49,616 bases of DNA, from the NCBI GenBank assembly GCA_965649055.1, contig CBFGJG010000011.1, forward strand, positions 1-49,616, given 5' to 3'. The stretch's first letter is position 1. Every line of letters begins with the position of its first letter. This DNA is from a candidate division WOR-3 bacterium. Its GTDB lineage: Bacteria; Hydrothermota; UBA3072; B12-G15. The notes under the pieces are model-generated. The model saw nothing but the letters and a program-made list of their open reading frames with translations, searched no databases and had not been told where the DNA came from. Made by a program: the position numbers and the translations under genes. This document shows, piece after piece, positions 3,573-49,389 of this stretch.

Positions 3573-3574
3573 AT

Positions 3575-5494: not shown

Positions 5495-5496
5495 TT

Positions 5497-6777
5497 ATGG
5501 ATAAATCATCAAAAAAATTTGACATTCCCTGTTTTATTATGATTTGCACTGATAAAACAGAACAAGAATGTTTGTATAAAGGACTATTTGGAGATCTAGA
5601 GTCGAGGATGCAGTATTTAACAACAATAAAAGAAGGTGATATAGGTTTTCTATTAAATTTATCAAAAGATGAGCTTTTGGGAATATTTTTAGCTGAAAGT
5701 AAAGCCAAACTTAATATTGATGAAAAGGCATGGGGTGGAAAATTTCCAGCACAAATTAAAGTTAAACCTATTGGAAATATTCAAAGAATTCCAGGAGCTA
5801 CAAGTAAATTAGAAGAAATTATAAAAATGTCACCTATCAGAAGCGGTAAAAGAGCCCCTGCCCAAAATGCTTATGGACCAGATATTACTAATAAAATTCT
5901 CTCATTTTTTAATATACCTGATAATTTAGAAGAAAATAAAGAACCTGAGATTGGAACAATTTCTGAGTATACATTAGATGATGACGTTGCAGGTTTAAAT
6001 GAAATTAAAGAATTTGTAAAAAGCAGAATCATTGCACCTTTTGAGGATATAGAATTAGCTTATACTTTAAAGCTCAAAATAGGAGGTGGAATATTACTTG
6101 TTGGACCACCCGGGACTGGGAAAACACTTATAGCAATGGCAGTTGCAAAAAGTATTGATGCAAAGTTTATAGAGGTTAGTCCTTCTGTAATTATGGGTTA
6201 TCCAGGTGAGGCAGAAAAAAGAATAGAGAATATTTTTTCTGCCTTGGAAAAAGAACCAAGAGCAGTTGTATTTCTTGATGAAGCTGAATGGATTTTAAAT
6301 AAGAGAATGGATCAGACTTCAACTGTGATGCAAAGAATTACACCTGTTCTTTTATCTCAGTTAAGCAGAATTTTTAAAGAAAAAACAAGACCTATAATTT
6401 TTATTGCTGCTACAAATAAACCCGAAAAGATAGATTCAGCTTTTCTTCGTCCTGGAAGATTTGACCGAATTTTTTATGTTGGGCTACCAGATGAAGAAGC
6501 AAGAGCAGCAATGATTAAAATGAAGCTTAGAGGAAGAAATAACGAAATTACCGATGAAGATATTAATGAATTATCATTAAAATTAGCTGGTTATTCAGGT
6601 GCAGACATTGAATATATAATTGAAGAGGCTGCTTATCTTGCTTTTAAAAGAAAAGGTAATATAATTAAGAATGATATTTTAGAATCTATTGAAAGAACTA
6701 CTCCTTCAGTGCAATCCGATGAAGTTAAAAATATTGAAGATTGGTTTAAAAGCCGAGGTTTAAAATATAATGGATAA
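5497..6777 (+). CDS. N-terminal DCD-like (PUA/EVE-related) domain fused to a classical-clade AAA+ ATPase (CDC48/Vps4-like)
   Basis: [35 protein letters not shown] (second region of homology), GYSGADI lid. The N-terminal ~100 aa (IMIC..T..ECL..GLFG..IKEGD..FL.N....L.GIF.A....NID..AW..KFPAQI) resembles the DCD pattern as I recall it. Confidence 0.85.
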
Positions 6778-6794
6778 AAAAAGGAGAAATTATT

Positions 6795-16700: not shown

Positions 16701-17226
16701 TATCTGTAAATTCCTGAATAACACCATAGGATTTAACTATAGAATCTATAGCAAATAAAACTACTTCAATAGTAGCCCATTCCCTTGAATGGTGAAGACC
16801 ATCTACAAGGATACCGGGTTCTGTAGGGTCTTCAAAATAAGGGTCATCTGATATTTTTAAACCATAAATCCAGTTCCCCTGATATGTAGGAATAGGAAGG
16901 GATTCAAGTTTGCAGATAGAAGGGTAATTATTAGCATAATTTCTTAAAATCTGATTAACTTCACTATAAGAATGGTAAGAGCCTTTAACAAACCTTTTCA
17001 TCTCTTTTAGACTCTCAACTATAATCTCATACTTTAATCCACTCCTTCTTATTTTTGTATAGATTTCATCGTCTGCAACGATGTCAAAATATTCAGCCGG
17101 TCTTGCAGAAGCGATATCAAGTAAAGGTTTTTCTTGGATCCTTGAGAGTTCAGACCTTGTTCTTGCATAAACCCGGATAATCATATCCTTTTCACCTGAT
17201 AAGAGAAAAATGATCAAAAAAAACAT
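13753..17226 (-). CDS. Secreted M14 zinc carboxypeptidase (carboxypeptidase T-like) with jelly-roll and Fn3-like modules and a T9SS-type CTD
   Basis: HHSREW, NVDG, WRKNR, DCNRNY, HSY, YPVSGSS, FVTEVG. CTD VYPN..IFDITGRIV..WSGED..LPKGIYFIK..KVV. AGGAGG Shine-Dalgarno. Confidence 0.9.
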   Translation of the reverse strand: MFFLIIFLLSGEKDMIIRVYARTRSELSRIQEKPLLDIASARPAEYFDIVADDEIYTKIRRSGLKYEIIVESLKEMKRFVKGSYHSYSEVNQILRNYANNYPSICKLESLPIPTYQGNWIYGLKISDDPYFEDPTEPGILVDGLHHSREWATIEVVLFAIDSIVKSYGVIQEFTDMVNSREMYFFPLINVDGYLYDYPSQYSWRKNREPFGGSIGTDCNRNYPGCSGDIEGDWGAVDEDQATHYPSGDLFCGAYENSGDETKALTLFVKEREINVNMSYHSYYEALFWPWGWTGSPTPDNELFSRFGNRIADMVSRLSGGVYGRGQIYSTIYPVSGSSIEWIYSYNKWVKGIPNLSFVTEVGTAFYQPASDLDNIVRQNFKAIKYLCQYADSVVLLSKPAVPPPEVVLNDTVPETFTINWIPEYDEYNTPSKWELVEFSGLNIITDNLESGSSNWVLNGFSISTAQAHSGSNSLFSGNTNNMNSAAVTKYPYIVKSDDSLVFWCYYNLETNYDVAVVEISENRLEWFNLDTTRFTGSSGGWIMKAYSLSKWTGKSVYFRFRSMTDGNTLNGGFYVDDIYPVSYFNNVETISSTIQDTFFEISGHNIGEYYYYVRGYNDVMGWGEYSNLKKVYIQNTGLATTPVIIKPFNFARIPDLNPVFSFYSEDPQNDDIQYGILIDDNYSFTLPETILTDFFTSGDTADYTFTEPLEYKTYWFKVRAKDSGSNLWGGFSNIRTFTTSNDIPMNTCSWFQCKREHFLQNSMTSVYVNGDSIILYPPGDTIYDTLLFEDFESGMPSGWTIVNSNNDAYKWVVGTTTALSTYTPPNYGTKYAFYSDDDAGSSAPQSIEEGLISPSFLITGSPLSLQLKYSYGYNDYSSYDYFRVRVRTFNNVWSGWTQIREYNSDGSGTETIDLSSFFPCESIQIEWYYTETSQEWGWACAVDNISVIKKEVLTILSGEVLFKEVSFDDLKKIYDREEWGDIVVKKAHPDDSVLLFVEYKDGNNWYFIPDMYLPGNLNGFYSNSIYDTISLSNVPPNLYSVIRVRANLYNTYKKIQPALLSLEVGNLSRYVGITEKDLMVKVYPNVFTDFLTIEGKDIKSIVIFDITGRIVKKIKKDKGKIKWSGEDEKNKILPKGIYFIKVETGRKIHIEKVVFIR

Positions 17227-23437: not shown

Positions 23438-23882
23438 CTTTCTCACCGCTTATAATTTTCTTTATTTCTTCTTTAATCTCTTCTTCATCACCTTTTTTGT
23501 ATCCTATATGTTTATAGATAACATCTCCATTTCTATCAAAAATCAATGTCGCCGGAATACTTGATAAACCAAGAGATTTCAGGATTTCTTTATCGGTGTC
23601 AAAAAATACAGGAAAAGTATAATTTTTCCCATTTATGAAACTTTCTATCTTATCCTTCATCCTTATATCATCAACTGTTATCGTAATAATAAATATTCCA
23701 CTGTCAGAATAATCTTCATAAAACTTCTGAATATATCTTAATTCTTTCTTACAGGGTTTGCACCAGGTTGCCCAGAAAGAGACAAGAACTGGATTTTCTT
23801 TATAAAATTCGGAAAGGGATAAAGTGCTATCATTTAAATCAGTCAATCTGAAATCGTATGAAAGAATGAATAATAGAATCAT
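23430..23882 (-). CDS. TlpA/ResA-family thiol-disulfide oxidoreductase
   Basis: VLVSFWATWCKPCKKE, IPATLIFDRNG, HIGYKKGDE. Confidence 0.9.
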   Translation of the reverse strand: MILLFILSYDFRLTDLNDSTLSLSEFYKENPVLVSFWATWCKPCKKELRYIQKFYEDYSDSGIFIITITVDDIRMKDKIESFINGKNYTFPVFFDTDKEILKSLGLSSIPATLIFDRNGDVIYKHIGYKKGDEEEIKEEIKKIISGEKDE

Positions 23883-25741
23883 CTTATCACCAGAACCTTT
23901 TTAATCTCTTTCTTACCTGAAAGGTCAAACTGGATAAAATATATACCATTTTTTATTTTATCTCCAAGTTCAAGATAGTGATTGCCCTTTCCATATCTCT
24001 CATTTTTTTCCATTATTTTCTTACCAGAGATATCAAAAATCTTTATTTTTATAAATGTTTCTTTATTTAAAGAAAATTTTACCAGACTTTCACCATATAT
24101 AATATTTTCAAAATTATCAAATTTGATAATCTCTTCAATGCCAGTGGATGTATATGTGAGTAAACGGACATCATCAACATACTGCCAGGTATTATCACCA
24201 TAACCATCTTCCCTTGTAAGAAATCTTATTCTTATGGTCTGACCCAAATAAGATGAAAGGTCAAATACTAAATTTTTCCATTCAAAATCATTAGTACAGG
24301 TATGATACAATGTCTGAAGGATAGAATTACCTGTATTTAATATCTCAAGATTCTGCCAGTTGTAGGTTATTACATCTTCAGTAAATCTTTTAACCCAACA
24401 ATTCAACAGGACTTTTTCTACATCTGATGGAATAGTTATTTCTCTGTACATCCAGTCATCTCCATTAGGTTCTGTTCCCGGCGGAGCTACACCAACAAGT
24501 GCACTGTAAGAACCTGAATGTGATTCTGATGAACTCCAGTATACATGATTTAAACCTCCTATGACCCATCCTGAAAGACCTGTTTCAAAACCTTCATCAA
24601 AAAAATATGAAGGTGTTCCTGCATAATAGGAAATAGTATCATATTTTGAGACATAATGATTAGTGATTGAACTTAATGCCTGTGTCTTTATTATAAATTT
24701 TAATTGATAACCTTCAGGAGTAGCACCTGATATTTGGAATAAAAATGGTGATGACTCATTTGAAATTATTCCTCCCTGCAATACACTATCAAACAGACAT
24801 TCACCATTTAATATTGAAACATAAGGGTCAGTGGAGATTAACTCCATCTTTACATTATTCCCTTTTGCACCAAAATTCATTAAATAAACAATCAATCCAC
24901 CTGTCTCACCGGGATCTATAAAACCATTATTATTCCCTTTTCCTGAAAATTCGAATATTGTATCAGCAGTCTTTTCAAACATTGGGGAAAAGAATAATTT
25001 TGCTCCCTGATAAATTGGTTTCCTTCTTATGTTACCCTGAGAGACAACATTATCTGTCTGAATGAATGAAACTATTCCAATCTTATCGGGATTCCAGTTT
25101 GAACTTATGGTGAATGGGATAGAACCATAAACACTATCAGGTGGTGAAACAAGGTTTACAGAAATACCAAGTGTATCAGGAATCATATCCCTCATCGCCT
25201 GATGATGAACCGGGTCACCATTGGGTCCTGTGTAATAAACATAAGATTCTGTTATTGCTGTCCTTAACCTTAGATTTGTTTGTGGAACATTATCTGTTGC
25301 CTTCGCTTTATAATAGATTGTTCCGGTCCTTGTCAGGGTATCATATTCAACTTCTAATGAAATTTCAATGGGTGAAGGATTTGATAACTGATTCAGTATT
25401 CTTGTCTCATATCCGGAAACATAACCATTAGGAACATCAACAGTATCACCATCGACAACAAGGTGTGGGACATAATTGAAATTAAAATAATATCTCCTTC
25501 TTGCAAGGTTCTCCTGTGTATTTGCAAGATAAAATGGGTCTGAAGATGATGGCCAGTTCATATGGAATCTTATTATTGCAAGATTGTTAAAGTAAATCTT
25601 TGAAAGCCAAGTAAGTTGCGCATTAGCACTAACACAAGGTCCACATCCTGTATTCGTGAATAATTCTGCTACAACAATCCTTTCACTTCCATAAGCAAAA
25701 AATGAAAAAATAATAATTAAAAACAATAGCAGATTTCTCAT
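23879..25741 (-). CDS. Omp28-related protein with additional jelly-roll module and T9SS-type CTD
   Basis: Signal peptide. VAELFTNTGCGPC, HMNWPSSSDPF, VPHLVVDG, HHQAMRDM. CTD IFDISGKKI..NGIYFI..KKV. Start moved from 25774 to the ATG after GGAGG. Confidence 0.82.
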   Translation of the reverse strand: MRNLLLFLIIIFSFFAYGSERIVVAELFTNTGCGPCVSANAQLTWLSKIYFNNLAIIRFHMNWPSSSDPFYLANTQENLARRRYYFNFNYVPHLVVDGDTVDVPNGYVSGYETRILNQLSNPSPIEISLEVEYDTLTRTGTIYYKAKATDNVPQTNLRLRTAITESYVYYTGPNGDPVHHQAMRDMIPDTLGISVNLVSPPDSVYGSIPFTISSNWNPDKIGIVSFIQTDNVVSQGNIRRKPIYQGAKLFFSPMFEKTADTIFEFSGKGNNNGFIDPGETGGLIVYLMNFGAKGNNVKMELISTDPYVSILNGECLFDSVLQGGIISNESSPFLFQISGATPEGYQLKFIIKTQALSSITNHYVSKYDTISYYAGTPSYFFDEGFETGLSGWVIGGLNHVYWSSSESHSGSYSALVGVAPPGTEPNGDDWMYREITIPSDVEKVLLNCWVKRFTEDVITYNWQNLEILNTGNSILQTLYHTCTNDFEWKNLVFDLSSYLGQTIRIRFLTREDGYGDNTWQYVDDVRLLTYTSTGIEEIIKFDNFENIIYGESLVKFSLNKETFIKIKIFDISGKKIMEKNERYGKGNHYLELGDKIKNGIYFIQFDLSGKKEIKKVLVIR

Positions 25742-25763
25742 ATAACCTCCAATTTTTGACTTA

Positions 25764-25791
25764 AAAATACACATAACTTCATTTTTGTCAA
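25764..25791 (-). promoter_or_regulatory. Promoter TTGACA-N16-TATTTT for the Omp28 operon
   Basis: Minus strand, divergent from the promoter at 25841. Confidence 0.5.
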
Positions 25792-27044: not shown

Positions 27045-30000
27045 ATGAAAAGGTTTTTACTTCTTATTTTATTCATTTCAATCTTTGCATTTCCTTTTTC
27101 AACAGGAGATACACTAAGCTTCACAATAGGTAATACACAGATTATCGCAGTTATAGAAGGAATAAATGGTGATACAATAAAACTTGATGGTAATGTTCAG
27201 AATATAAATTTTGGTGAGATAAGGGTTGACGACTTAAAGATTTCGTTCTCAAACTTTGTTCAGGGAAATCTCCTTGTTTACTCATATGGTTCTGTATCCT
27301 ATCTTGGTCCAAATCCACTTGTAATTGGTGGAGTGAATGTTTACAATATCCAATGCCATCTTGACAACACAGGTTTCTGGGCAACAGGTGATATTGATGT
27401 TAATGGTGAATATCTAACAATTTATTTCTATTACGGAACAGATGGATTCATATATGGTGAAGCAACATTCCCAACAATAGAGATAGCTGGACTTACAATA
27501 AGCAACCTAAATATCACACTTTCAACAAACGGGATAACCGGTGGTGGCTATTTTGATTATTATGGGAATAACCTTTATGTAAATCTTGCTGTTGATACAA
27601 ACAAAAATGTCTATCTATATATAGATAAATGTAATATAACAGTTGGTGATGTTTCTATATATGATTTCAACGGAATTTTCACACCATATGGATTGAGTGG
27701 CTCAGGAACAATTATTATACAGGGAAACTATCTTACCTTTAATTTTGCCCTTGATGGTTCAAGTTATAATATAAACATAACTGATGGTTTTTTGAATATT
27801 CACAATGTAAATATATATGATATTTCAGGAACTATAAACAACTCTGGATTTTCAGGCTCTGGAACAATACACTATCTTGATGCTATAATACATCTATCTT
27901 TCTATTCAATCGGAGGAGAAATTCAGATATCTGTGACTGATTCAGAGATTTTGTTATCAAATATATTAATACAGAATCTCAACCTGACATTCAATTCTAA
28001 CAATGGTCTTTCAGGCTCTGGAAAGGTTTATATAAACAATATTGTCTATCCAGTAAATGGATTAATCACTGTTTACTTCTCAACAGATTTAAATGGTTAT
28101 ATCTCCTGTGGTATATCAAATGGTTATCTTATGTTGAATAATGGTTATATAATAGAGAACCTTTCTGCATTCATTGATAATAATGGCTTCTGGGGTAATG
28201 GAACATTCTTTGATGGTGAGAATGATGTCTCCGTTTATTTCAGGTCAAATGTGAATGGTGAAATATACTGGTACATCTACGGAAACTCTATAACTATCGG
28301 AAATATTATTCTACATCATTACTATGTTGATATAAATGGAAATGCCTATGCATGGTGGATTATATCACCGGAAGATTCAATTTTCTTTTCTATTTCACAA
28401 AATCATCAATCTGCAACAATTGTTTATCCTTGCACGCTAAATTTAGGTGGTGTTAAAGTTTATAATGTGACAGGAACAATTTATAATGACCCTGATTTTG
28501 CATTTGAAGGAACAGGTTTTATAAAAATAGGTGATGGCGATTTCTCTTTAACTATACCAATTATGATTACATCAAATTCATATGGTAAACTTGAAGGAAG
28601 ATACAATGGAACTATAACATTACATAATCCAGAATATATTATTGTTAATATTTATGGTGTTGAGATAACGATAACAGAGGATGGAATTGTAGGTAAAGGT
28701 CATCTGTTAATCGAAGGTATTGAAGCAGATGTATTTTTCACTGTAAATGCTAATGGTGCCTTATACGCCAATATTCAGAATGGATTTATCGACATGGGAT
28801 ACTTCAGGTTAGAAGATATTTATATAAATACATCACCATTTGAAGCAGCTGGTTTTATTTACATACCATCTCTTTCAGGTGGTATTGCATTTGAACTTGT
28901 TCCTGATGGTGATGGTGATTTAATTCTAAATATCCCTGGCTTTGAGTTCACAATAAATGGATTCACGGTCTCAGGAAGTTTCCATTATGAAGATTCATCC
29001 CTTGTTATAACTGGAAGTATTTTGATACCAAATGGTGGATATGGAAGTGTTGATTATCTGAAAATCAGTGAAAATGGTGTTGATACAGCGCATATAACAT
29101 TATCAAATATATCTGTATCAGGTTATACATTGATAAACGCAACAGGGATTTTATCCAACAATCCAAAAAGTTTAATCATTTCAGGTTCATTTGATTTATC
29201 AACAACAGGGATTATTGACACAGTTTATTTCTCAGGGCTCGTTATTCTACCTGATGGTAAGATTGCATCTTGTTCAGGTATAGGTTTAACAGGTGTACAT
29301 ATTGCAGGTTTTGAATTCTCAGGTTATCTGGGAATAAAAGATAATTATATTGTTATATACAATGCAAGTGCAAACCTGACATCTGTTGGTGCAGGGATTA
29401 TTTCTATAAACAACCTTATTTTTGACAGGGAAGGCAATTTTATTTCTGTATCTTCTTTCGGAATTGATAATATCAATGTAGGTATTTTTCACGGTGGTGG
29501 ATGGGCTTTCTTTGTGCCTGAAGGAGTAGAACTCTCAGGAAAAGTAATTGTTGATAACATCGGTTATTTTAGTGCCATAGGATTGCTGATTGACAATAAT
29601 GGAAATGTTATATCACTAAAAAAAGGTGAGGCAAATATAACAATAGGTGAATATGGTTTTTATGGTGCAGTTGGGATTCCATCTTCTGACAGGATTTACA
29701 TTGCGGGTTCAATCACATTACCAGAATTCATAAATGGTTCGGCAGGTGGAAGCATATTATTACAAAGGGTTCAAGATGGTCAGGGTATACTTGGTCTTGG
29801 ATACAATGTCCTTGCAGGTTCTCTGAGTATACCTTCATTTGATATATCAGGCTATCAATTTGGTGGCGGTTCATTTGCATTTGATTCTGCTGGTATAAAA
29901 GGTAATGCGACAATATATATACCAAACTTTGCAGGATTTGAATTAACATTCTTTGTTGAATGGGATGGAACTTTCCACTACGCAGAAATATTTGCTTCCG

Positions 30001-32561
30001 GTCTTAATATACCTATAGGTTCAACAGGTTTACTTTTAACAGGTGCAGGTGGTGGTCTTTACTACTTTGGTGATTACAATATCTGGGAAGTTATGTTGAC
30101 CGGTGAAATAAAAGATGCAACACACACACTTTCTTTAATAGCAACGATTGAAGTGAATACTGCTGGTGTTATTTCAGGTGTTGGACACCTTGGAATTTAT
30201 GGGTATGTATTTGGTTCAGCAGGTTTCGGTATAGATGTTCCAAATGATTCTTTAACTGCATCTGCATGGATTGGCGAGGACCCGAACGAAGGTATTGAAT
30301 ACTGGGGTTGTCAGATTGTTGGGTGCGCAAGTGTATATTACAACTGGGCAAATGTTGAAGCAAGAGGTTTAGGAAATCTTGATATATCAATCTGGTTCAT
30401 ACAGCTTGGTGCTGATATGGGATTTGCATACAATACTAATTTCCCATATGTTTACGGTCCTTACTATATGGAAAGATTATATAACCATGGTGTAGGTGCA
30501 GCAGGTATACTGAACAATTATCTTTACGGTGTAAATGTCCAGTGGAACGGAAATGGATTCGATTGGGATACATGGAGTGGTTCGCTCGGTTCTTCACCAG
30601 GTAATGCACCTTATGAAAAGGATATTCTAATACTTGGTCCATACCCTGACGAAGGAATAAATTTTGATTATGTTGGTGGTGAAGAATACATTTTACCTTA
30701 TGATAGTTACGAAGCAGTTGGCGGAAAGGTTTGGTTTGGTGCTCAGGGTGATGAAACCGGATATGTTAATTTGATTCCTTATTTTCCTTACACCACAAAT
30801 GGTGTTTCATATGCGAATCTTTATGTTCATTACAATGATACTACACCAGCATATTTAAAATTAGGTATCGCAGGTGAATACAAGATTTTCCTGAATGGTT
30901 CATTCATATACAATGGTTCTAATGTTTACGCACAGCCAGACCAGCACACAATCTCAATCCCTCTTCAGAATGGCTGGAATAGATTGATGTTAAAGATAAG
31001 GAAGATAAGTTCAAACTGGGGTTTCTATTTAAGAATAACAGATGCACAAGGTAATAAGATTCCTCTCCTAACAACACAACCAGATGCACCTGATGAAGAC
31101 TTCTTACTCCATGATAGATGTTATACTTTCAGGTCTTTCCACTGGCAGAAAATAGGAAATGTTTATATAACAAATGGAACTATGGCAATTGCTGCGAATG
31201 GCGGAAAACTTTATCAAAATACTGTAAGGGAAAAAAGAACATACGAAAGGAACGATTATCCTACGATTAAGTGTGAATTTAAGTTAACCGGTGTTTCTTT
31301 GAATGACTCTACAATAATTGCTGTTGATGGATACGATGACCAGGGAAATTATCAGTTATTTGGAGTTCTGTACTATTATGAGCAGAAAAAAGATGGGAAT
31401 ACTGTCCTTGTTGGGAAATCAAAAGATAAAACTTTTGATATAAATGTTGGCGAGTGGTATACACAGGAACTTATATTCACACCTGAAAATATAGAATGTT
31501 ATATTTACAGGGCTGGTGAGACAAGGCCTGTATTCCCGATATTTGTTGATACAAATTCCTATAACTGGAATCCTTCATTCTTTGCGACTGCGGGTGGTAG
31601 TGATAATATACTTTATCTTGATAATATAGTTGTTAAAAAGACCTGGGAAAATGATTATTCATTCAATATTGAATCACCCCATCCATACCCAAACAACGCA
31701 AATCTTGAATGGGAGATTTACAGGAAAGATGCAACAGGTTTAAGATTCCATTTTGAGAATCTCGTTCTTGAACCATATTACGATTCCTTAATCATAATGG
31801 ATGGAAATGGTATAGTATGGCAGGTTTTGAATGGAAATGTCGGAAGGACAACATCAGTAAAGGTTCCCGGAAAATATGCAAAAATTTTATTAAGGAGCGA
31901 TAACTCCAATAATTACTATGGATTTAAGATTGATTTCGCACAGAAACTCAAAGAATATCCTGTTTATATCTCCGAAGTTTCAAACATAAGCACACCACAT
32001 CCATATCAAAACAATATGAATGTCATATACACGATATCCAGACCAAATGCAAGGGCTATAAAAATATGTTTCTCGAATTTCCAGGTAGAAAAAAATCATG
32101 ATTATGTTTACCTCTATGACAAAAACAATGTTCTATATGCAACATACACAGGTGACCTTGGAAATTTTGAATCTGTTGCAATACCAGGTGATATTGTTTA
32201 TGTCAGATTTGTTTCTGATAATGCAATAAATGGATATGGTTTTGATATAAAGAAGTTTGAATATATAGGTGAAGATTGGACGGATGTTGATGTTCCTGTG
32301 GTTAGAAAAGATTATATAAAACCAATAATAAATATTTCTGATGATGAAATAAAATTTGAATTTGGTCTGAAGGAGAAAAAAGACATAAATATAATGCTTA
32401 TTGATATTGCCGGAAGGGTTTTAAGACAAGAAATTATAAGAGATGTCTCAGGTATAATTAAAAAGAATATAAAGATAGATGACCTGCCAAAAGGAACTTA
32501 TTTTGTTCTTTTCAGGATAGACAGAGAGATTTTCAGGGAAAAAATTGTAAAAATAAAATAG
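27045..32561 (+). CDS. Giant secreted beta-rich protein with two CUB-like domains and a T9SS-type CTD
   Basis: Signal peptide. About 1150 aa of Gly/Ile/Asn-rich beta repeats, a jelly-roll module (LQNGWNRLMLKI..WGFYLRITD), two CUB-like repeats (SPHPYPNN..F..LE..YD..SD.S...YGF), and CTD DIAGRVL..LPKGTYF..KIVK. Confidence 0.8.
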   Translation: MKRFLLLILFISIFAFPFSTGDTLSFTIGNTQIIAVIEGINGDTIKLDGNVQNINFGEIRVDDLKISFSNFVQGNLLVYSYGSVSYLGPNPLVIGGVNVYNIQCHLDNTGFWATGDIDVNGEYLTIYFYYGTDGFIYGEATFPTIEIAGLTISNLNITLSTNGITGGGYFDYYGNNLYVNLAVDTNKNVYLYIDKCNITVGDVSIYDFNGIFTPYGLSGSGTIIIQGNYLTFNFALDGSSYNINITDGFLNIHNVNIYDISGTINNSGFSGSGTIHYLDAIIHLSFYSIGGEIQISVTDSEILLSNILIQNLNLTFNSNNGLSGSGKVYINNIVYPVNGLITVYFSTDLNGYISCGISNGYLMLNNGYIIENLSAFIDNNGFWGNGTFFDGENDVSVYFRSNVNGEIYWYIYGNSITIGNIILHHYYVDINGNAYAWWIISPEDSIFFSISQNHQSATIVYPCTLNLGGVKVYNVTGTIYNDPDFAFEGTGFIKIGDGDFSLTIPIMITSNSYGKLEGRYNGTITLHNPEYIIVNIYGVEITITEDGIVGKGHLLIEGIEADVFFTVNANGALYANIQNGFIDMGYFRLEDIYINTSPFEAAGFIYIPSLSGGIAFELVPDGDGDLILNIPGFEFTINGFTVSGSFHYEDSSLVITGSILIPNGGYGSVDYLKISENGVDTAHITLSNISVSGYTLINATGILSNNPKSLIISGSFDLSTTGIIDTVYFSGLVILPDGKIASCSGIGLTGVHIAGFEFSGYLGIKDNYIVIYNASANLTSVGAGIISINNLIFDREGNFISVSSFGIDNINVGIFHGGGWAFFVPEGVELSGKVIVDNIGYFSAIGLLIDNNGNVISLKKGEANITIGEYGFYGAVGIPSSDRIYIAGSITLPEFINGSAGGSILLQRVQDGQGILGLGYNVLAGSLSIPSFDISGYQFGGGSFAFDSAGIKGNATIYIPNFAGFELTFFVEWDGTFHYAEIFASGLNIPIGSTGLLLTGAGGGLYYFGDYNIWEVMLTGEIKDATHTLSLIATIEVNTAGVISGVGHLGIYGYVFGSAGFGIDVPNDSLTASAWIGEDPNEGIEYWGCQIVGCASVYYNWANVEARGLGNLDISIWFIQLGADMGFAYNTNFPYVYGPYYMERLYNHGVGAAGILNNYLYGVNVQWNGNGFDWDTWSGSLGSSPGNAPYEKDILILGPYPDEGINFDYVGGEEYILPYDSYEAVGGKVWFGAQGDETGYVNLIPYFPYTTNGVSYANLYVHYNDTTPAYLKLGIAGEYKIFLNGSFIYNGSNVYAQPDQHTISIPLQNGWNRLMLKIRKISSNWGFYLRITDAQGNKIPLLTTQPDAPDEDFLLHDRCYTFRSFHWQKIGNVYITNGTMAIAANGGKLYQNTVREKRTYERNDYPTIKCEFKLTGVSLNDSTIIAVDGYDDQGNYQLFGVLYYYEQKKDGNTVLVGKSKDKTFDINVGEWYTQELIFTPENIECYIYRAGETRPVFPIFVDTNSYNWNPSFFATAGGSDNILYLDNIVVKKTWENDYSFNIESPHPYPNNANLEWEIYRKDATGLRFHFENLVLEPYYDSLIIMDGNGIVWQVLNGNVGRTTSVKVPGKYAKILLRSDNSNNYYGFKIDFAQKLKEYPVYISEVSNISTPHPYQNNMNVIYTISRPNARAIKICFSNFQVEKNHDYVYLYDKNNVLYATYTGDLGNFESVAIPGDIVYVRFVSDNAINGYGFDIKKFEYIGEDWTDVDVPVVRKDYIKPIINISDDEIKFEFGLKEKKDINIMLIDIAGRVLRQEIIRDVSGIIKKNIKIDDLPKGTYFVLFRIDREIFREKIVKIK

Positions 32562-41114: not shown

Positions 41115-44100
41115 TCAATCTGTTAATGCTTTTATCTCTGAAACTATCTCTTCGTTTGTGAATCCAAGAAGGTCTATTGCATTACATCTGCATGCTGCTG
41201 TGCAGAGACCACATCCTTTACATAGAACTTTATTCACATCACTCTTCTGAACAATCCTTCCTGCGATTTTTTTCTCAACAAGTTGTATTGCCTTATATGG
41301 ACAAACATTCACACAATCACCACAACCTGTGCATTTTGCTTCATTCACATAGGATGTTATTCCTGATGTCTCAATCCCATCTTTAGAAAGAACAACAAAT
41401 GCCCTTGATGCAGCTGCAAATGCCTGAATTATTGATTCTTCTATACCTTTTGGTGAATGTGCAAGGCCTGCAAGGAATACACCATCAGTTGCAAAATCAA
41501 CAGGTCTAAGTTTCACATGTGCTTCAAGGAAGTATTTATCCTGATTCAACGGAACCTTAAACAATTTTGAAAGCTTCTCATTATTTTCTTTATCAGGAAT
41601 AATTCCATTAGAAAGGACTAAATAATCCGGCTCAAATATTATCTCATCACCCAATATATCATCCTTTACCTTAACAACTACTTTACTATTTTCCAGAGAA
41701 ACTACTGGTTTTTCATCCTCTTTAAACCTTATAAATACAACTCCTTTCTCCCTTGCCTTCCTGTATTCAAGTTCCTTGTATCCATAAGTTCTCAGATCCC
41801 TGAAAAGAACATAAACATCAGTATCAGGGAATTTCTCTTTTAAAAGTATTGAATTTTTTACTGCCTCTGAACAGCATACCCTTGAACACCAAGGATGTTC
41901 TTCATCCCTTGAACCTACGCATTGTATCATAACAACGCTCTTTGGATTTTCCATCTTTCCTTTTAATATATTTTCTTCAAGTTCAAACTGGGTTAAGATG
42001 TTCTGAGACTTTCCATAATTATATTCTTTTGGTATATATTCTCTTGCACCTGTTGCTATAACAACAACTCCGTGCTCTATCTCTTCTTCATATCCGTTAC
42101 TTCCTATTGTTGTCTTGAAATTACCAACGAATCCTTCGCTCCTTAATACATCAAAACCTGTTTTAACCTTAATCAATGGATTTTCCCTTATCTCTTTCTC
42201 AAGACTTTCAAGATAATTTTCTACATCAAGACCTTCAAGTGTCTTTGAAAATTTCCTCGCATTACCACCAAGTTTTTCTTCCTTTTCAACAAGGACTGTC
42301 TCTATCCCACCCCTTGCAAATAATAATGCTGCATTCATCCCTGTGATTCCACCACCTATAACAAGTGCTTTTTTATTTATGGGGATTATCTTGGTCTCAA
42401 GCGGTTCAAGCAGATTTGCCTTATATACTGCTGATTTAACAAGGTCTTTTGCCTTCTCTGTCGCAGCATTCTTATCTGTCTGGTGAACCCAGGAATCCTG
42501 GTCCCTTATATTTGCCATTGAGAAAAGGTATCTATTAAGACCTGCTTCTCTTATCGTTTCCTGGAACAATGGTTCATGTGTTCTTGGTGTGCAGGATGCA
42601 ACAACTATTCTATTTAGATTAAATTCTTCTATTTTTTTCTTTATCAAATCCTGTGAATCCTGTGAACAGGTATACAGGTTTTCAGTTGCATAAACTACAT
42701 TGGGAAGATTCTTTGAAAATTCAACAACCTCTTTAACATTCACATAAGCACCTATATTTATTCCGCAATGGCAAACAAATACACCTATTCTTGGTTTTTC
42801 ATTCAAGATATATTTCTCTTCAGGATATTCTTTTATCCTGACATCACTTCCCCTTGCCTCAGCAAGTAATGCCTGAACAAATCCTGCAGCAGCAGAACCC
42901 TGTGCTACAGTCTCAGGAATATCCTTTGGGCCTTGAGCAGCACCACAAACATATACACCATCCCTTGTTGTCTTAACAGGATTCTCATTAGGTGTTTTTA
43001 CAAATCCGAGTTCATTAAGCTCAATTCCCAATGCCTTTGAAATATCAGAAAGGTTCTCATTAGGATGTAAACCAACAGAAAGGACAACAAGGTCAAATGT
43101 CTCTTTAACAAGTTTTCCATCCTGTTCATACGTTATAATCAAATCCTTTGTTTTTTCGTCTTCAACAACGGATGATGGTCTTGCCCTTATATATCTTACA
43201 CCGTGATTTTTCTCCGCATTCTCAACATACCTATCAAAATCCTTACCAAATGAACGGATATCCATAAAGAATATTGTAGGTTTCACGGAATGGTCATGTT
43301 CTTTAGCGACAACGGTCTGTTTAACTGCATAGGTGCAACATACAGATGAACAGAAAGGATAATCTTTTTCCCTTGAACCAACACATTGAATCCACGCTAT
43401 CTTCTCAGGATGTTTATCATCTGAAAGCCTTCTTATATGTCCTGAAAATGGGCCTGATGCAGAAAGTATTCTTTCGAATTGCAAAGATGTAACAACATTT
43501 GCATATTTTTTGAATCCGTATTCTTTTATATTTTCAGGTGAAAAATCCTTAAATCCAGGTGCAACAACAACTGCACCAACATCAAGTTTAAGAACCTCTT
43601 CTTTCTGTGAATGGTCTATTGCATCAGCAGGGCATGCTGCTTCACATATCTTACAGGCATCATTTTTAAAGAACATACAATAATTCGGGTCTATTTTGGG
43701 TTTACTTGGAACTGCCTGTAAGAATGGTATGAATATAGGATTTCTATTGCTCAGGTTTCTTTCAAATTCAGATGGTATTGGTATAGGTTCTCTTCCAGAA
43801 ATCTTTTTAATTGTAATAGCACCTGTAGGGCATATATCTGCACATGCACCACATGTTACACAGACTTCTGAAAATATCTCAAACGGGGTTGTAAGTTCCC
43901 TTCTATAACCTCTGTTTTTAAATCCTATCGCACCTATCTTCATCCTTTCATGACACATCCTTACGCAGAGACCGCAAAGGATACATTTATTTGGGTCATA
44001 AAAGTAATTTTTCTCTTTATATTCGTGTTTTTTTAATTTTAATTCTTTAACACCATATTGTTCTGCCAAACTTCTTATCTCTTCTGATTCAGGTGCCCTT

Positions 44101-44378
44101 GTAAGGAGCATTTCGAGAATCAACTTCCTTGCCCTTTTTACAGGTTCTGAATCTGTCCTTACCTCACCTTCCCAGGCAGGATAGGTGCAGGCAGTCTTTA
44201 AAGAAGATTTTCCCTTCCATATTGTTTCGACAACACAGACCCTGCAAGAACCATATGCAGAAAGATAAGGACTGTGACATAATGTAGGGATATAAATCCC
44301 ATTCTCCCTTGCAATATCAAGTATTGTCCTTTTTGGATCTGGTTTAAATATCTTACCATCAATTATCAAATCTGTCAT
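41115..44378 (-). CDS. hdrA: NuoG/HydA-type N-terminal Fe-S domain fused to the C-terminal remainder of a tandem (HdrL-like) HdrA
   Basis: [17 protein letters not shown] (2Fe-2S) and [11 protein letters not shown] / CVTCGAC..CP. Then [66 protein letters not shown] and a C-terminal 2x[4Fe-4S] domain. Confidence 0.88.
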
Positions 44379-46222
44379 ATAACCTCTATTGCTCCAAATT
44401 GACAGCTATCATAACATATTCCGCATTTAATACAACTTTCCTGATTAATGGAATGTGGTTTCTTCTGTTCACCTGTAATAACCTTCTGTGGACATCTTAA
44501 AGCGCATAATGTGCAACCGGTGCATTTATCTTCTATTATTCTATATTTGATAAGTGGTTTACAAACTTTTGCAGGGCATCTTTTTTCTTTTATATGTGCT
44601 TCATATTCTTCCCTAAAGAAATTTATAGTTGAAAGGACTGGATTAGGTGCAGATGTTCCGAGCGCACAAAGAGAACATTCTCTCATTACCCAGCCTAATT
44701 CCTCAAGTAATTCTATATCACCTTCTTTTCCTTCCCCTTTTGTAATCCTCTCAAGTATTTCTGACATCTGTATCAATCCTTCCCTGCAGGGTGTGCATTT
44801 ACCACATGATTCATCCTTTAAAAAATTTGTGAAATACTTTGCTATATCAACCATACAATTATCTTCATCCATCACTATCATTCCACCAGAACCCATCATA
44901 GAACCAACCTTTGTGAGTTCATCATAATCTACCGGAAGGTCAAGAAGGCTTTCAGGAATAACACCACCAGATGGACCACCTGTCTGGACTGCCTTAAATT
45001 TCTTGTTATTCTTTATACCGCCACCTATGTCAAAAATAATCTTTCTCAATGACATTCCCATTGGAACTTCCACAAGCCCTGTATTATTAACCTTTCCAAC
45101 AAGTGAGAATATCTTTGTTCCTTTGCTTCCTGCAGTCCCCATAGATGCAAACCATTCCCAACCATTATTTATTATTTTAGGAACACATGCCCATGTTTCA
45201 ACATTGTTCAATGTTGTTGGTCTTTCCCATAATCCTTTCTCAACTGTGTGAACATGTTTTGCCCTTGGTTCTCCAACTTTACCTTCTATGGAAGCCATAA
45301 GTGCTGTTGATTCACCACACACAAATGCACCACCACCACGATTAACCTTCACATCAAATCTGAATCCTGTTCCAAGGATATTATCGCCAAGCAATCCATA
45401 TTCCCTTGCTTTTTCTATAGCATGACTGAAAAATTTAACGGCAAGTGGATATTCCTGTCTCACATAAATGTATCCATAATTTGAACCAATTGCATATGCA
45501 CCTATTATCATTCCTTCAAGGACAGAATGTGGATTACCTTCAAGTAATGCCCTGTCCATAAAAGCACCAGGATCACCTTCATCTGCATTACAAATAACAT
45601 ATTTTATTTCTCCCTCCGCCTTCCTGCAGGACTCCCATTTTTTCCCAGTTGGAAATCCACCTCCACCCCTTCCTCTTAATCCAGATTTTTTTATTATCTC
45701 AATTATTTCTTCGGGTTTCAGTTGGAATGCTTTTGGTAAAGCTGTGTAACCATCATTAGCAATGTAATCTTCAATGCTATCAGGTGATATACTGACGTTT
45801 GCATCAAGAAGAATTCTTTTCTGCATTTTATAGAAAGGTATCTCTTCTGTGTATATTTTCTTTTCATCTGTCTCTGGGTCTTTATACAAAAGTCTATCTA
45901 TTATCTTTTTATTAATTATTGTTTCCTGGACTATTTCCTTAACATCTTTTACTTTCACAAGCTGGTATTGTATATTTTCAGGCATTTTTATAACCACAAC
46001 ACCTTTTTCACATAAACCAAGACAACCTGTTTTTAATAATTTAACCTCTAAATCAAGACCTTTTTTCAAGATTTCCTCTTTAAATGCGTTTGAAACATCA
46101 AAAGCACCCCTTGCTATACAGCCAGGACCATTACATACAGCTATATAATTCTGCTCTTTTTCCTTTTTTTCTTTAAGTCTTTTCCTTAAAATTTCAAGTT
46201 CTTCAACTGTTTTAAGGCGCAT
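44375..46222 (-). CDS. nuoF: NuoF/HydB-like FMN- and NAD(H)-binding subunit with extra Fe-S domains
   Basis: [56 protein letters not shown]-terminal CNGPGC..CLGLC and C-terminal 2x[4Fe-4S]. Start moved from 46243. Confidence 0.92.
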
Positions 46223-47096
46223 TGTTTTTCCTGTATGATTCAATTACCCTTGCAAGTTTTGATGTTGTTACTGAATGATAATCATTATCAATCATTATCA
46301 CAGGTGCAAGCGCACAAGTTCCTAAGCAGTTGACGGTTTCAACAGTAAATTCAAAATCTTCTGTGGTTTCTCCTGCTTTTATTCCAAGCTCTCTTTCAAT
46401 CTCATCCAGTATTTTAGGTGCTCCCCTTGAATGACAGGCCGTTCCCATACATACCCTTATCAAATGTCTACCTCTTGGTTTCATTGTAAACGCAGTATAA
46501 AATGTTACCACATGATATATATGTGATAATGGAATCTCAATGACATTACTTAAATATTTAACAATATTTTCAGGGATGTAATTGAATTCTGTATTTATAT
46601 CGTGCAAAATCTCTATAAGCATTTCTTTACCGATTTTCTCATTGGATGAATATTTGGCAAATATTTTTTTTAATCTTTCTATCTCATCTTTTGTAAGATT
46701 ATTTATATATTCAGTTTTTTTTTGAATCTGTGGTGCATAATTCACAGGACAGGCTTCAATACAATCACCACATCCTTTACATTTATCAAGGTCCACATAT
46801 CTTGGATGTTTTTTAACCTCTGCAATCAGATTTCCAGGTTCACCTTTTAATGAAGATATTTCAGCATTAGTGATAAGTTCTATATTAAGATGTCTACCTG
46901 CCTCAACCATCTTTGGTGAAAGGATACATGTTGAGCAATCATTTGTAGGGAATGTCTTATCAAGTTGAGCCATTACACCACCTATAGATGGTGATTTTTC
47001 TACAAGATAAACATAGAAACCACTTGATGCAAGATCAAGCGAAGTCTGAATTCCACCAATTCCACCACCTAATACAAGAACCTTACCACTTTTCAT
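46212..47096 (-). CDS. HdrA N-terminal FAD-binding fragment fused to a NuoE/HydC 2Fe-2S domain
   Basis: [40 protein letters not shown]...CP, followed by [27 protein letters not shown]. Start moved from 47120. Confidence 0.88.
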
Positions 47097-47102
47097 ATTG
47101 TT

Positions 47103-47130
47103 AAAATAATTATACTTCAAAAACTGTCAA
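47103..47130 (-). promoter_or_regulatory. Promoter TTGACA-N16-TATTTT, 6 nt before the ATG (leaderless)
   Basis: Minus strand, upstream of the ATG at 47096, no Shine-Dalgarno. Confidence 0.55.
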
Positions 47131-47274: not shown

Positions 47275-49389
47275 CTACCTTATTATAAAAAACTTTTTAG
47301 ACACTTTTATTCCACCATCTATATACACATTGAAAAAATATATTCCATTAGGTTTATTTGCTGTCGTAAATTCAATTATTCTTAAGCCTTTGTATCTCCC
47401 ATCATAGATATTTTCTATCTTCCTTCCTACTATGTCAAATACTGAAACATTTAAGTGTGATTCTTCTGGAAGATAAATCTTTAATAATATCTTATCACCT
47501 CTTATCTCAGGCTCTGAAATATTTAGAACATCAATCTCTTCTCCCTTATCACCAACATAATCTGCCCCAAGCCAGTTAAGATATAAATCATTTAAAGAAT
47601 CTGATGCTATATTATCCCAAAAATAAAGTGAATGAATTGGGGATTGTATCCAGTCTGAATTGAATATCTGGAATATAACCTTCCCTGCACCCTTCTTCCC
47701 TGCATTATCCCTTCTTATTGATAAAACACTGTCATTTCTTTTCATATCCGGGTACGCATCTATAAATGAATCAATATACCCTGCCCATTCATTAGAACTC
47801 TTTCCAGAAACAGCACCATGTAAAATTGTCCCAGGAATTTGATATGAAACACCATTGAAGAGCTCTCCCAAAATAGAATCTGATGCTTCTCCTGATACAA
47901 AAAATGAATCCTTCTTAAATGTTCCATCATCTGTCCCTTTTGTTATCCCAATATATTCCTTCAAAAATCCTTCATCTATTGTATGTGAACCATAATCAGA
48001 AAATATTGAGCAGGAAACACCAAAGAATCCATCCTGGTCAGAAAGCCAAAAACCACCACCATTATCAAGCAATCTCTTTATATAAACGGTATCCCCTTCC
48101 CTTATTATACCTGAACCATAATTGTTATATGAAAGTTCTATCTCACCAAAACCCTTCCATACAACAATATTCTTTCCTCCTCCATTTATATAAAAATCAA
48201 ATACAGATGAATCAGGTGCTCCACCTTCTCTTGATATATCCCATACATCAAGATTATAATTCTTCTCAATGTACTCCGAAAATATTGCAGTCTTATTCCC
48301 TTTAACATAAAGTCCATTACCTGATTTCCCTTTTTTTATAATATAAGAAATATATTCAGTTGACTTAGGATGGTCTCTATTCCATGCCTCCAATCTATAA
48401 GTAACTGTATCATATACATTCACACCAGGTAGCATCCCTTTCCATACACTCTCTATCGTATCCCCATATTCAAATGTCATCTGAACCTTATTTGTGGGAC
48501 CTTTGTTTACAAAATAATATATAAATGCAGAATCAATGCCAAAAGGTGAACCAAGGTCCTGAACATATAGATAAACCTTTCTCGGACCAATCGTATATGA
48601 ATTTGGTAATTTATCAGGCAAGAGAATCATTGTTGTATCAGGAATCTGATTCCAAAAAACATAGGCGGTTATCTTAAATTCCAATTTGTAATTATCTGTT
48701 GTAAAATAATATGAATACCATTTCCCCCATGAGTGTCTGTATCTATAAGAATGGGAATATTTGCCTAATACATTACCATACTCATAACCAAACATCTCAT
48801 CTGTTGATATTATTGCCATATTGTTCACACCATTTACATATCCACATAAAAATTCTCTTTTTGGTGGTATTTTAACATTTGCATATATTGTATCCCAAAC
48901 AAAATTAGGTCTTCCATAACTTACAAATGTCTTTAATATTGTATCAATCGGTGAAATAAAGGGTGCGGATGAAGCCTCCTCATAACCTGGAAATGTATCC
49001 CAATCAATATCATTCCTTGCAAGAGCAACAAATGGATAATAGATAGAATCAATACATCCTGTTGTTGTGTTGTAGTGTTGAATTATAAATTTATGTAAAG
49101 AACAGGGAACACCTCCGGGAATGGTAAACCTTGTTAATTGTGTGTCTTCAACAGGTCTTGGCATGTAATAACCTATTTGAATATTATAATGATAATACAA
49201 TGAATCATAACCAAAAACCCATTTTATATCATTCTTTTTATTCACAGGAACATATTTTATTATACTCTTCCTTCCAACTATCTCTATTCTCTTTCCTTCA
49301 TTCCCAGGTTCTAACTTAAACAAAAGTCTTTCTGAAAATAAATCTATAACCATAAAAAACAACATTACAAGAAACATTCTTCTTATCAT
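47275..49389 (-). CDS. Secreted hypothetical protein with a T9SS-type CTD
   Basis: AGGAGG Shine-Dalgarno, signal peptide, Ig-like segment, LLDNGGGFWLSDQD (GATase-like module by inference), and CTD VFDIVGRKI..NGIYF..KK. Confidence 0.72.
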   Translation of the reverse strand: MIRRMFLVMLFFMVIDLFSERLLFKLEPGNEGKRIEIVGRKSIIKYVPVNKKNDIKWVFGYDSLYYHYNIQIGYYMPRPVEDTQLTRFTIPGGVPCSLHKFIIQHYNTTTGCIDSIYYPFVALARNDIDWDTFPGYEEASSAPFISPIDTILKTFVSYGRPNFVWDTIYANVKIPPKREFLCGYVNGVNNMAIISTDEMFGYEYGNVLGKYSHSYRYRHSWGKWYSYYFTTDNYKLEFKITAYVFWNQIPDTTMILLPDKLPNSYTIGPRKVYLYVQDLGSPFGIDSAFIYYFVNKGPTNKVQMTFEYGDTIESVWKGMLPGVNVYDTVTYRLEAWNRDHPKSTEYISYIIKKGKSGNGLYVKGNKTAIFSEYIEKNYNLDVWDISREGGAPDSSVFDFYINGGGKNIVVWKGFGEIELSYNNYGSGIIREGDTVYIKRLLDNGGGFWLSDQDGFFGVSCSIFSDYGSHTIDEGFLKEYIGITKGTDDGTFKKDSFFVSGEASDSILGELFNGVSYQIPGTILHGAVSGKSSNEWAGYIDSFIDAYPDMKRNDSVLSIRRDNAGKKGAGKVIFQIFNSDWIQSPIHSLYFWDNIASDSLNDLYLNWLGADYVGDKGEEIDVLNISEPEIRGDKILLKIYLPEESHLNVSVFDIVGRKIENIYDGRYKGLRIIEFTTANKPNGIYFFNVYIDGGIKVSKKFFIIR

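Follow-up and report, generated by a model that had tools for sequence, protein, structure and literature searches.

At the gene level, a tandem ('type II') HdrA of a candidate division WOR-3 bacterium has a complete HydBC/Bfu-type electron-bifurcating module built into it. The three genes concerned, referred to here as the cassette, lie on the minus strand of contig CBFGJG010000011.1 (assembly GCA_965649055.1), of which a stretch of 49,616 nt (the window) was analyzed. Alignments place the splice in the small 2x[4Fe-4S] ferredoxin domain that is itself inserted into the first HdrA unit. Therefore, HdrA unit 1 is built from two polypeptides, each of which covalently links one half of the ferredoxin domain to one end of the Bfu module. 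Through flavin-based electron bifurcation anaerobes can live near the thermodynamic limit, and HydBC/Bfu and HdrA are two unrelated machines that perform it. So far a single enzyme has been shown to combine them, in a 2026 preprint on benzene-ring reduction, the consulted part of which calls their coexistence previously unreported (10.64898/2026.04.10.717634). The cassette joins the two differently and more intimately, with one flavin domain and one ferredoxin domain divided between polypeptides. The names on record hide this link: gene 1 is an 'NAD(P)H-dependent oxidoreductase subunit E' and gene 3 an 'FAD-dependent oxidoreductase'.

The open reading frame (ORF) of gene 1 spans positions 46212-47120 and opens with TTG. 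However, its likely start is the ATG at 47096, which gives a protein of 294 aa (46212..47096) that matches the form on record (P0005). The ORF of gene 2 spans 44375-46243, and its likely start is the ATG at 46222 (44375..46222), the point where alignments to solved HydB begin. This ATG sits inside the end of gene 1, an overlap of 11 bases. Gene 3 (41115..44378) encodes 1087 aa, and its ATG at 44378 overlaps the stop codon of gene 2 by 4 bases (ATGA). All three frames are open and the genes are translationally coupled.

Domains were mapped by alignment to solved structures (5odc_A, 8a6t, 7t2r, and 9mqx) and by Pfam and NCBIfam profile searches. The original prediction, made by a model from the sequence alone, described gene 1 as the HdrA N-terminus followed by NuoE. 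The order is right and the HdrA piece does run to the first ferredoxin motif, but it is the N-terminal part of the flavin adenine dinucleotide (FAD) domain, which is thioredoxin-reductase-like; the canonical HdrA N-terminal domain is found in gene 3. Residues 13-128 of gene 1 align to residues 145-260 of solved HdrA 5odc_A (E 4e-40). This first piece of unit 1 (P0001 9-128; 46737..47096) contains the GxGxxG of the FAD fold (G18-G23), Cys62-x-x-Cys65 and the first motif of the inserted ferredoxin domain, CX2CX2CX3CP (C114, C117, C120, and C124). It is fused to a NuoE/HydC/BfuC-type thioredoxin-like [2Fe-2S] domain (P0001 143-302; 46212..46694) with C224, C229, C265, and C269. Here residues 147-297 align to HydC 8a6t_C (E 7e-43) and P0001 residues 151-296 match PF01257 (E 1e-47).

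Gene 2 had been called a full HydB-like NuoF, and this is borne out. It aligns end to end with bifurcating HydB/BfuB, both 7t2r_B (799 bits, residues 33-619 against 7-594) and 8a6t_B, and the alignment reaches residue 619 of 622. The flavin mononucleotide/NADH and [4Fe-4S] parts match PF01512 (E 9e-45) and PF10589 (E 4e-33). At the N-terminus is a thioredoxin-like [2Fe-2S] domain whose match to PF01257 is weak (P0002 27-107), although its four Cys align with those of 7t2r_B and 8a6t_B. Gene 2 also has a His/Cys hinge, and a stretch of 13 residues and both CX2CX2CX3C motifs of the C-terminal 2x[4Fe-4S] domain are conserved in the alignment to solved HydB. Complex I NuoF chains match only residues 155-553 of gene 2; the N-terminal [2Fe-2S] and C-terminal 2x[4Fe-4S] domains are features of bifurcating HydB that complex I NuoF does not have.

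Gene 3 begins with a BfuA/HydA/NuoG-type N-terminus (residues 1-192; 43803..44378). Residues 3-191 match HydA/NuoG-type N-termini, the best being 9mqx_A (WorA of 247 aa, E 7e-38); 8a6t_A and 7t2r_A match as well. It has a [2Fe-2S] site (C34, C45, C48, and C64) and a 2x[4Fe-4S] domain (C132, C135, C138, and C142; C173, C176, C179, and C183), and no His-ligated cluster motif was seen on reading its sequence. HdrA unit 1 then resumes (residues 198-510; 42849..43787), with residues 198-453 matching 5odc 257-511. This second piece carries the second ferredoxin motif, spaced CX7CX2CX3CP (C234, C242, C245, and C249), a flavin-adjacent four-Cys [4Fe-4S] cluster (C332, C343, C347, and C348), and Lys353 and Glu302, which by counting on the alignment correspond to Lys409 and Glu356 of 5odc. 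An HdrA N-terminal-type domain comes next (residues 527-660; 42399..42800), with C536, C538, C571, and C596 and an Asp at position 628; residues 527-758 match 5odc 2-234. The FAD domain of unit 2 (residues 668-1003; 41370..42377) retains GxGxxG, C820, C831, C835, C836, and K841. However, it lacks the Cys-x-x-Cys pair, reading LEGLDVENY at that place, and also the inserted ferredoxin domain. The protein ends with a 2x[4Fe-4S] ferredoxin domain (residues 1009-1083; 41130..41354) identified by alignment to 5odc (residues 946-1083 match 514-647) and by Pfam. These alignments agree with the predicted make-up of gene 3 as a NuoG/HydA N-terminus, a resumed HdrA, and a second HdrA unit. Pfam finds neither an H-cluster nor a molybdopterin domain in it, again as predicted.

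The fragments align to HdrA with complementary ends (145-260 in gene 1 and 257-511 in gene 3, in 5odc numbering), so the split separates one cluster motif of the inserted ferredoxin domain from the other, as had been predicted. The NCBIfam HdrA2 profile gives the same picture, its positions 140-261 matching gene 1 and 254-562 matching gene 3. All parts expected of a Bfu module are present (BfuA-, BfuB-, and BfuC-type), including the sites for NAD(H), FMN, and ferredoxin, with HdrA as the third-substrate module. Counted by motifs, the three proteins have three [2Fe-2S] and about twelve [4Fe-4S] sites. Likewise, genes 1 and 3 together have the sequence features of a tandem HdrA, except that the ferredoxin domain is spread over two chains, with motif 1 in gene 1 and motif 2 in gene 3, whereas an HdrA would have it in one.

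Conservation was assessed in 34 gene 1 sequences (alignment A1), 35 gene 3 sequences (A2) and an alignment of the HdrA parts with 122 rows (3 window-type, 6 GltD-type, and 113 other split-type proteins). The cofactor residues of unit 1 are invariant in A1 and A2, comprising the FAD fold, Cys62/Cys65, both ferredoxin motifs, the four-Cys cluster, Lys353, and Glu302. The same is true of the NuoE-type Cys in A1 and, in A2, of the BfuA-type Cys and the four Cys of the N-terminal-type domain. C820, C831, C835, C836, and K841 of unit 2 are invariant in 35/35 gene 3 sequences. The Cys-x-x-Cys pair is kept in unit 1 only. In solved HdrA this pair, Cys194 and Cys/Sec197, is described as located between the flavin and the cluster of the N-terminal domain (PMC13518236). 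Since only unit 1 keeps this flavin-adjacent pair, the two HdrA flavins are probably not equivalent. As worded in the original prediction, the tandem HdrA flavins are therefore not supported.

A replaced Cys had also been pointed out, and D628 (codon 42495-42497) does occupy a position within a motif of ten residues where 107 of the 113 other split-type proteins have Cys. However, Asp at this position is common to exactly the clade of the window proteins (3 window-type and 6 GltD-type) plus one other protein, and solved HdrA 8rvu_a also has it (REHDSWVH). The idea that a cluster ligand has been lost is rejected, given the clade-wide Asp, the Asp of 8rvu_a and the invariance of the four other Cys. 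The replacement is a clade marker and probably not significant.

Structure prediction is consistent with one FAD domain and one ferredoxin domain being rebuilt across the two chains, as was originally proposed for the FAD domain. When the unit 1 pieces of genes 1 and 3 were co-folded they scored 0.92 in 3/3 runs, against 0.00 for the best of 3 controls, with a partner pLDDT (predicted local distance difference test) of 89 and at least 93% of contacts shared between runs. The calibration mark is reached by 116/157 solved complexes and by 2/215 mismatched pairs. The contacts are those of a Rossmann sheet and a two-cluster ferredoxin, with strand pairing between gene 3 residues 269-273 and gene 1 residues 14-17, and motif-to-motif contacts between gene 3 residues 245 and 253 and gene 1 residues 109-120. 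A pass is expected for halves of a known fold, and it may be a memory of single-chain HdrA, including the solved one; it speaks for likeness, not binding.

Could the split be an artefact? The genome is a metagenome bin of 85 contigs (completeness 93.8%), the kind of source in which chimerism of the assembly, or a broken hdrA harbouring an unrelated nuoEF operon, has to be considered. Public Logan contigs of run X1 have matches at places across the operon, with each match differing in 0 to 2 letters. However, these contigs come from one hot-spring study, are 100-420 bases long with a depth of about 3-5, and none spans the whole operon. Because they are so short and shallow, continuity of the operon is beyond their reach. 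The joints among them have sides of 20-32 letters at 90% likeness and are probably from relatives. Among the sequencing runs listed as containing the stretch there is no RNA run; the one RNA run of the same study contains next to no sampled words, and one 65-base piece could be placed at ~91% likeness. More telling is recurrence. A locus survey with one genome per species returned 77 loci, 20 of them with a NuoE-like match, and the split order (gene 1-type fusion, nuoF, and bfuA-hdrA fusion) is present in 16/77. By record titles these come from Thermoplasmata, another archaeon, Spirochaetes, Eubacteriales, Desulfobacterales, Acidobacteriaceae, Cloacimonadota, and Dehalococcoidia. Two more of the NuoE-like loci (L013 and L020) have a single HdrA split instead of a tandem one, and L051 and L088 have an unsplit Bam-like order (tandem hdrA, mvhD, nuoE, nuoF, and bfuA). 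The other 57 loci hold ordinary hdrA genes. The best 120 gene 1 homologues all cover 86-98% of gene 1, and the same fusion is found in 113 of the 119 best gene 3 homologues. Within the phylum of the window genome a fused gene 1 occurs in 18/201 genomes (16/90 genera), although in 0/3 other genomes of its family. With order and break point recurring in 16 independent loci of several phyla, open frames with overlapping start and stop codons, invariant cofactor residues and a native base composition, artefact or decay is hardly credible. The split design is not an assembly artefact and recurs across phyla; as far as sequence can tell, the chimeric assembly that would have refuted the original prediction is itself refuted. 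Among uncultured anaerobes the design is broadly distributed and not confined to this window, and it is found in many phyla that do not degrade aromatics.

The closest known system is benzoyl-CoA reductase of class II (BCRII) from Geobacter metallireducens, namely the BamEFGHI part of Bam[(BC)2DEFGHI]2. As presented in the consulted part of the preprint (10.64898/2026.04.10.717634), HydBC-type BamGHI is joined there to a fused HdrA dimer, BamE. In both systems only the first FAD domain has all the hallmarks of bifurcation (a Lys near N5 and Cys-x-x-Cys), and BCRII includes an MvhD-type adaptor, BamF. However, the HydBC-type genes of the cassette are inside hdrA and fused to both halves of the inserted ferredoxin domain. 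Its HdrA is split and fused to G- and I-type subunits, whereas BamE, F, G, H, and I are separate genes. In BCRII it is the C-terminal ferredoxin domain on which BamI docks, and BamBC is fed by the inserted one. The wiring of the cassette differs at the gene level and probably physically. Because of this wiring, and because there is no BamB, the cassette is not a benzoyl-CoA reductase of class II. A search for a tungsten aldehyde oxidoreductase-type gene (BamB) with PF01314 gave no match in the 93.8%-complete genome, and the operon contains no BamD- or HdrD-like gene.

The cassette can also be set against the Bfu family (HydABC, NiFe-HydABCSL, NfnABC, and WorABCSL), for which cofactor sites have been catalogued (PMC9304861). 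All BfuB and BfuC sites described there are present. The BfuA part lacks the His-ligated cluster motif, like the 'Type 2' members, and its best solved match is WorA (9mqx_A). In the portion of that survey available to us HdrA appears only in Bam-Bfu, and no member has BfuC and BfuA fused to the halves of a flavoprotein (PMC9304861). Type II HdrAs of methane-metabolizing archaea have two FAD domains, and genes 1 and 3 are likewise tandem. The type III HdrA described in the same paper is relevant in another way: a GltD insert lies in this very ferredoxin domain, its proposed effect being to convert the ferredoxin site to an NADH port (PMC12054007). Unlike this insert, that of the cassette consists of three subunits, breaks the polypeptide and lies ~25 residues upstream of the GltD point. 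Nuo is not mentioned in the consulted text of the paper on type II and III HdrAs (PMC12054007). Units of nuoEFG-mvhD and nuoGEF-mvhD-hdrA are listed in Desulfotignum phosphitoxidans, with no remark on fusions in the part consulted (PMC4046663). No description of the split HdrA was found in the literature searched by full text, a search that did not extend to the Appel et al. (2021) review or to the supplementary tables of the Bfu paper. MvhAGD-HdrABC and FlxABCD-HdrABC have the same HdrA fold and cofactor set, and both kinds of locus are found in this genome (contigs C43 and C3, respectively). However, HdrA is a single chain in those complexes, separate subunits together with MvhD/FlxD are the entry for NAD(P)H or H2, and the low-potential partner is free ferredoxin.

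The nearest relatives of gene 3 are not split. Over residues 242-1086 it shares 63-70% identity with six unsplit tandem HdrAs, which are 1474-1483 aa long and align almost without gaps (none in the best pair), whereas identity to every other split-type protein among the best matches is at most 56%. Each of the six has a GltD-type NAD(P)H domain placed within its inserted ferredoxin domain. Window-type and GltD-type proteins were united by FastTree with support 1.0 (nine rows, six of them GltD-type) and by IQ-TREE, from 34 rows picked out of the 122, with 100 in the Shimodaira-Hasegawa-like approximate likelihood ratio test (SH-aLRT; eleven rows, eight GltD-type). A nesting of the window clade within the GltD group is unsure, with supports of 0.90 and 83. 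The sequence set was drawn from the top gene 3 matches, so insert states are unevenly sampled and the direction of change is unpolarized. The boundaries also differ, the Bfu split falling directly after motif 1 (CPVNY|) and the GltD insert ~25 residues later (QAVPS|). Two of the GltD-type proteins belong to genomes of the same family as the window genome (G001 and G002, sister genera). No flanking ORF matched between the window cassette and the GltD-type gene of either genome, and for lack of shared flanks an in-place replacement of the GltD-type by the Bfu-type insert is not demonstrated.

In G001 and G002 the GltD-type hdrA is followed by mvhD-flxC-flxB-flxA-hdrA'-hdrC (hdrB is next, as seen in G002). 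Contig C3 of the window genome is collinear with these genes (54-76% identity), except that the leading one is missing there. A side feature of C3 is a DNA methylase gene with a 291-aa ORF (C3:11405-13217) between tandem hdrA' and hdrC, genes that are directly adjacent in G001 and G002; it seems that a restriction-modification pair landed inside this redox operon.

The gene content around split cassettes bears on what else the enzyme contains. The window operon was correctly predicted to hold no hdrBC or mvhD, since its flanking genes are unrelated: hdrB, hdrC, and mvhD are absent from it and from its immediate neighbours. Genome-wide, CCG-domain (HdrB-like) genes are on contigs C3, C43, C25, and C9, with mvhD and hdrC-hdrB pairs on the first three. 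Standing alone without an mvhD neighbour is particular to the window cassette. In the other split loci mvhD directly follows gene 3 in 12/12 of those with DNA beyond it, hdrC and hdrB are directly upstream of the cassette in at least 6/16, mvhGA is within the locus in 7/16, and a flxCBA-like trio follows mvhD in 4. Together with the counterpart operon on C3, headed in the sister genera by the orthologue of gene 3, this makes more subunits likely, and the three-subunit complex of the original prediction is not supported as worded. The cassette also holds the only NuoF-type gene found in the genome by profile search and tblastn. No [FeFe] hydrogenase was found in the 93.8%-complete genome, in which two [NiFe] large subunits are present.

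We infer the function of the cassette and the direction of its electrons as follows. The three genes would encode the core of a two-module redox enzyme that works in a Bam-like manner, with products of C3 as its most probable partners, and we consider this account rather probable. NADH and reduced ferredoxin would be jointly oxidized (confurcation) at the Bfu module. Electrons would then reach HdrA through the ferredoxin arm, in which both clusters of the rebuilt domain would bridge the two chains, making it a wire from the BfuA clusters to the unit 1 flavin. Only unit 1 retains the full set of hallmarks of a bifurcating HdrA flavin and may be the bifurcating site, whereas unit 2 may be a scaffold or relay, like the second FAD domain of BamE. 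From the unit 1 flavin electrons would leave to MvhD- and HdrCB-type partners, here encoded outside the operon, most probably by mvhD-flxCBA-hdrA'-hdrCB of C3. This direction is favoured because BamGHI, the only HydBC module studied on an HdrA, works as an input. The consulted part of the preprint describes it as the input of NADH and reduced ferredoxin to the fused HdrA dimer, in which the first FAD domain alone bifurcates and the Cys-x-x-Cys pair and Lys mark the one bifurcating flavin (10.64898/2026.04.10.717634). It is also favoured because the GltD insert has been read in print as an NADH input (PMC12054007).

Several observations do not sit easily with the Bam-like account. In BCRII, as the preprint reports it, BamI feeds the C-terminal ferredoxin domain and BamF, and the inserted domain is the low-potential output (10.64898/2026.04.10.717634). 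The inserted domain is the low-potential exit in methanogen HdrA too (PMC13518236). By gene topology the Bfu module would thus be on the output arm, and the opposite electron direction may fit equally well. The window lacks the mvhD and hdrCB neighbours of other split loci, its flanking genes are not syntenic with those of the sister genera, and the proposed link to C3 rests on orthology with those genera, not on adjacency. In addition, unit 2 keeps the Lys and the four-Cys cluster and therefore may not be a mere scaffold. What if HdrA's low-potential electron is taken up by the Bfu module instead of free ferredoxin? In this scenario a donor acting via MvhD (H2 through Mvh or NAD(P)H through Flx) would be bifurcated at unit 1. 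The high-potential electron would go to HdrCB and the low-potential one, via the rebuilt ferredoxin domain, to BfuA, where a second bifurcation would reduce NAD+ and ferredoxin. The position of the split in a domain that is the low-potential exit of both methanogen HdrA and BamE suits this scheme. So does the presence of mvhD after every assessable cassette and of mvhGA at seven loci, which means that a separate mid-potential donor is usually encoded alongside. However, BamGHI works as an input, NADH input has likewise been proposed for the GltD insert, located at almost the same point (PMC12054007), and partly spending a low-potential electron on NAD+ looks wasteful. This polarity is possible, but we regard it as distinctly less probable than the Bam-like one.

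There is less still to be said for a self-sufficient three-protein enzyme that works without MvhD and HdrCB, for example an NADH/ferredoxin-linked reductase whose third substrate would bind at the HdrA flavins or the C-terminal ferredoxin domain. The operon does consist of three genes only, with unrelated neighbours, and includes the only NuoF-type flavoprotein gene found in the genome. However, mvhD follows gene 3 at all other assessable loci, the orthologue in the sister genera heads an operon with mvhD and hdrCB, and the flavin-adjacent cluster, which feeds HdrC in known enzymes, is fully conserved. Such an enzyme therefore seems improbable.

A broader idea is that the loop between motifs 1 and 2 is a socket into which NAD(P)H modules plug, swapping fast, and that the Bfu form is a widespread, general-purpose double-bifurcation engine. 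This is speculative and on the whole we doubt it. Orthologous tandem HdrAs of one bacterial family do bear either a single-domain GltD/NfnB-type module or the entire three-subunit HydBC/Bfu one. If true, a Bfu-plugged HdrA would run two different bifurcation sites in series via the low-potential arm. Class II benzoyl-CoA reductase would be one specialized case of such an engine, and the window organism would have no other NuoF-type link between its NADH and ferredoxin pools. The exchange of GltD for Bfu inserts within one family would be a natural experiment on the direction and partners of bifurcation. The cassette bears on serial bifurcation as a general strategy, on electron direction, and on the substrates of bacterial HdrBC-type partners.

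Other Hdr genes of the genome deserve mention. On C43 (13615-15644) a tandem hdrA, cut at the contig end, lies beside mvhD-mvhG-mvhA-protease-hdrC-hdrB. In IQ-TREE it pairs with a split-type protein, P0148 (SH-aLRT 99), which hints that split and unsplit states may have changed more than once. It might be taken for part of a second cassette. This was rejected, since in G001 and G002 the orthologues (72-74% identity) have unbroken frames coding for 1047-1048 aa with the same mvhDGA-hdrCB genes behind them, and the assembly contains only one NuoE, one NuoF, and one BfuA. A third Hdr locus is on C25 (20027-28597). It comprises hdrC, hdrB, a single HdrA of 1120 aa with a GltD insert ('type III') and a 242-aa putative iron-sulfur protein, together with a putative 560-aa flavoprotein, mvhD, and a putative FrhB-like gene, names that come from reading the sequences. 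Elsewhere in the phylum, several hdrA-like matches (genomes G027, G028, G029, and G160) contain TGA codons in frame within the N-terminal portion of the FAD domain. One possible reading is selenocysteine in the Cys-x-x-Cys pair, both positions of which are Cys in gene 1 of the window.

The cassette is unremarkable in composition. Its GC content at third codon positions (GC3) is 0.17-0.28, against a genome range of 0.241 +/- 0.033; total GC is above that of the neighbours, but with GC3 ordinary for the genome a foreign origin by composition was rejected. Downstream is a convergent radical-SAM/SPASM gene. Upstream, after a gap of 155 bases, is a 704-aa protein without a Pfam match (47275-49389, minus strand). 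This is one of three large secreted proteins of the window, the others being at 13753-17226 and 23879-25774 (both minus); they include an M14 carboxypeptidase that ends in a Por/T9SS C-terminal sorting domain, a tail also found on an Omp28-like protein. At the far end of the window (19-9515, plus strand) is a defence-type run with a RadC-like JAB protein, a UvrD helicase fused to a PD-(D/E)XK nuclease, an N6/N4 DNA methylase, an AAA ATPase with a DCD domain, and a type III restriction res-type helicase. Finally, an ORF of 1838 aa (27045-32561, plus strand) has a single CUB domain near its C-terminus as its sole Pfam match.

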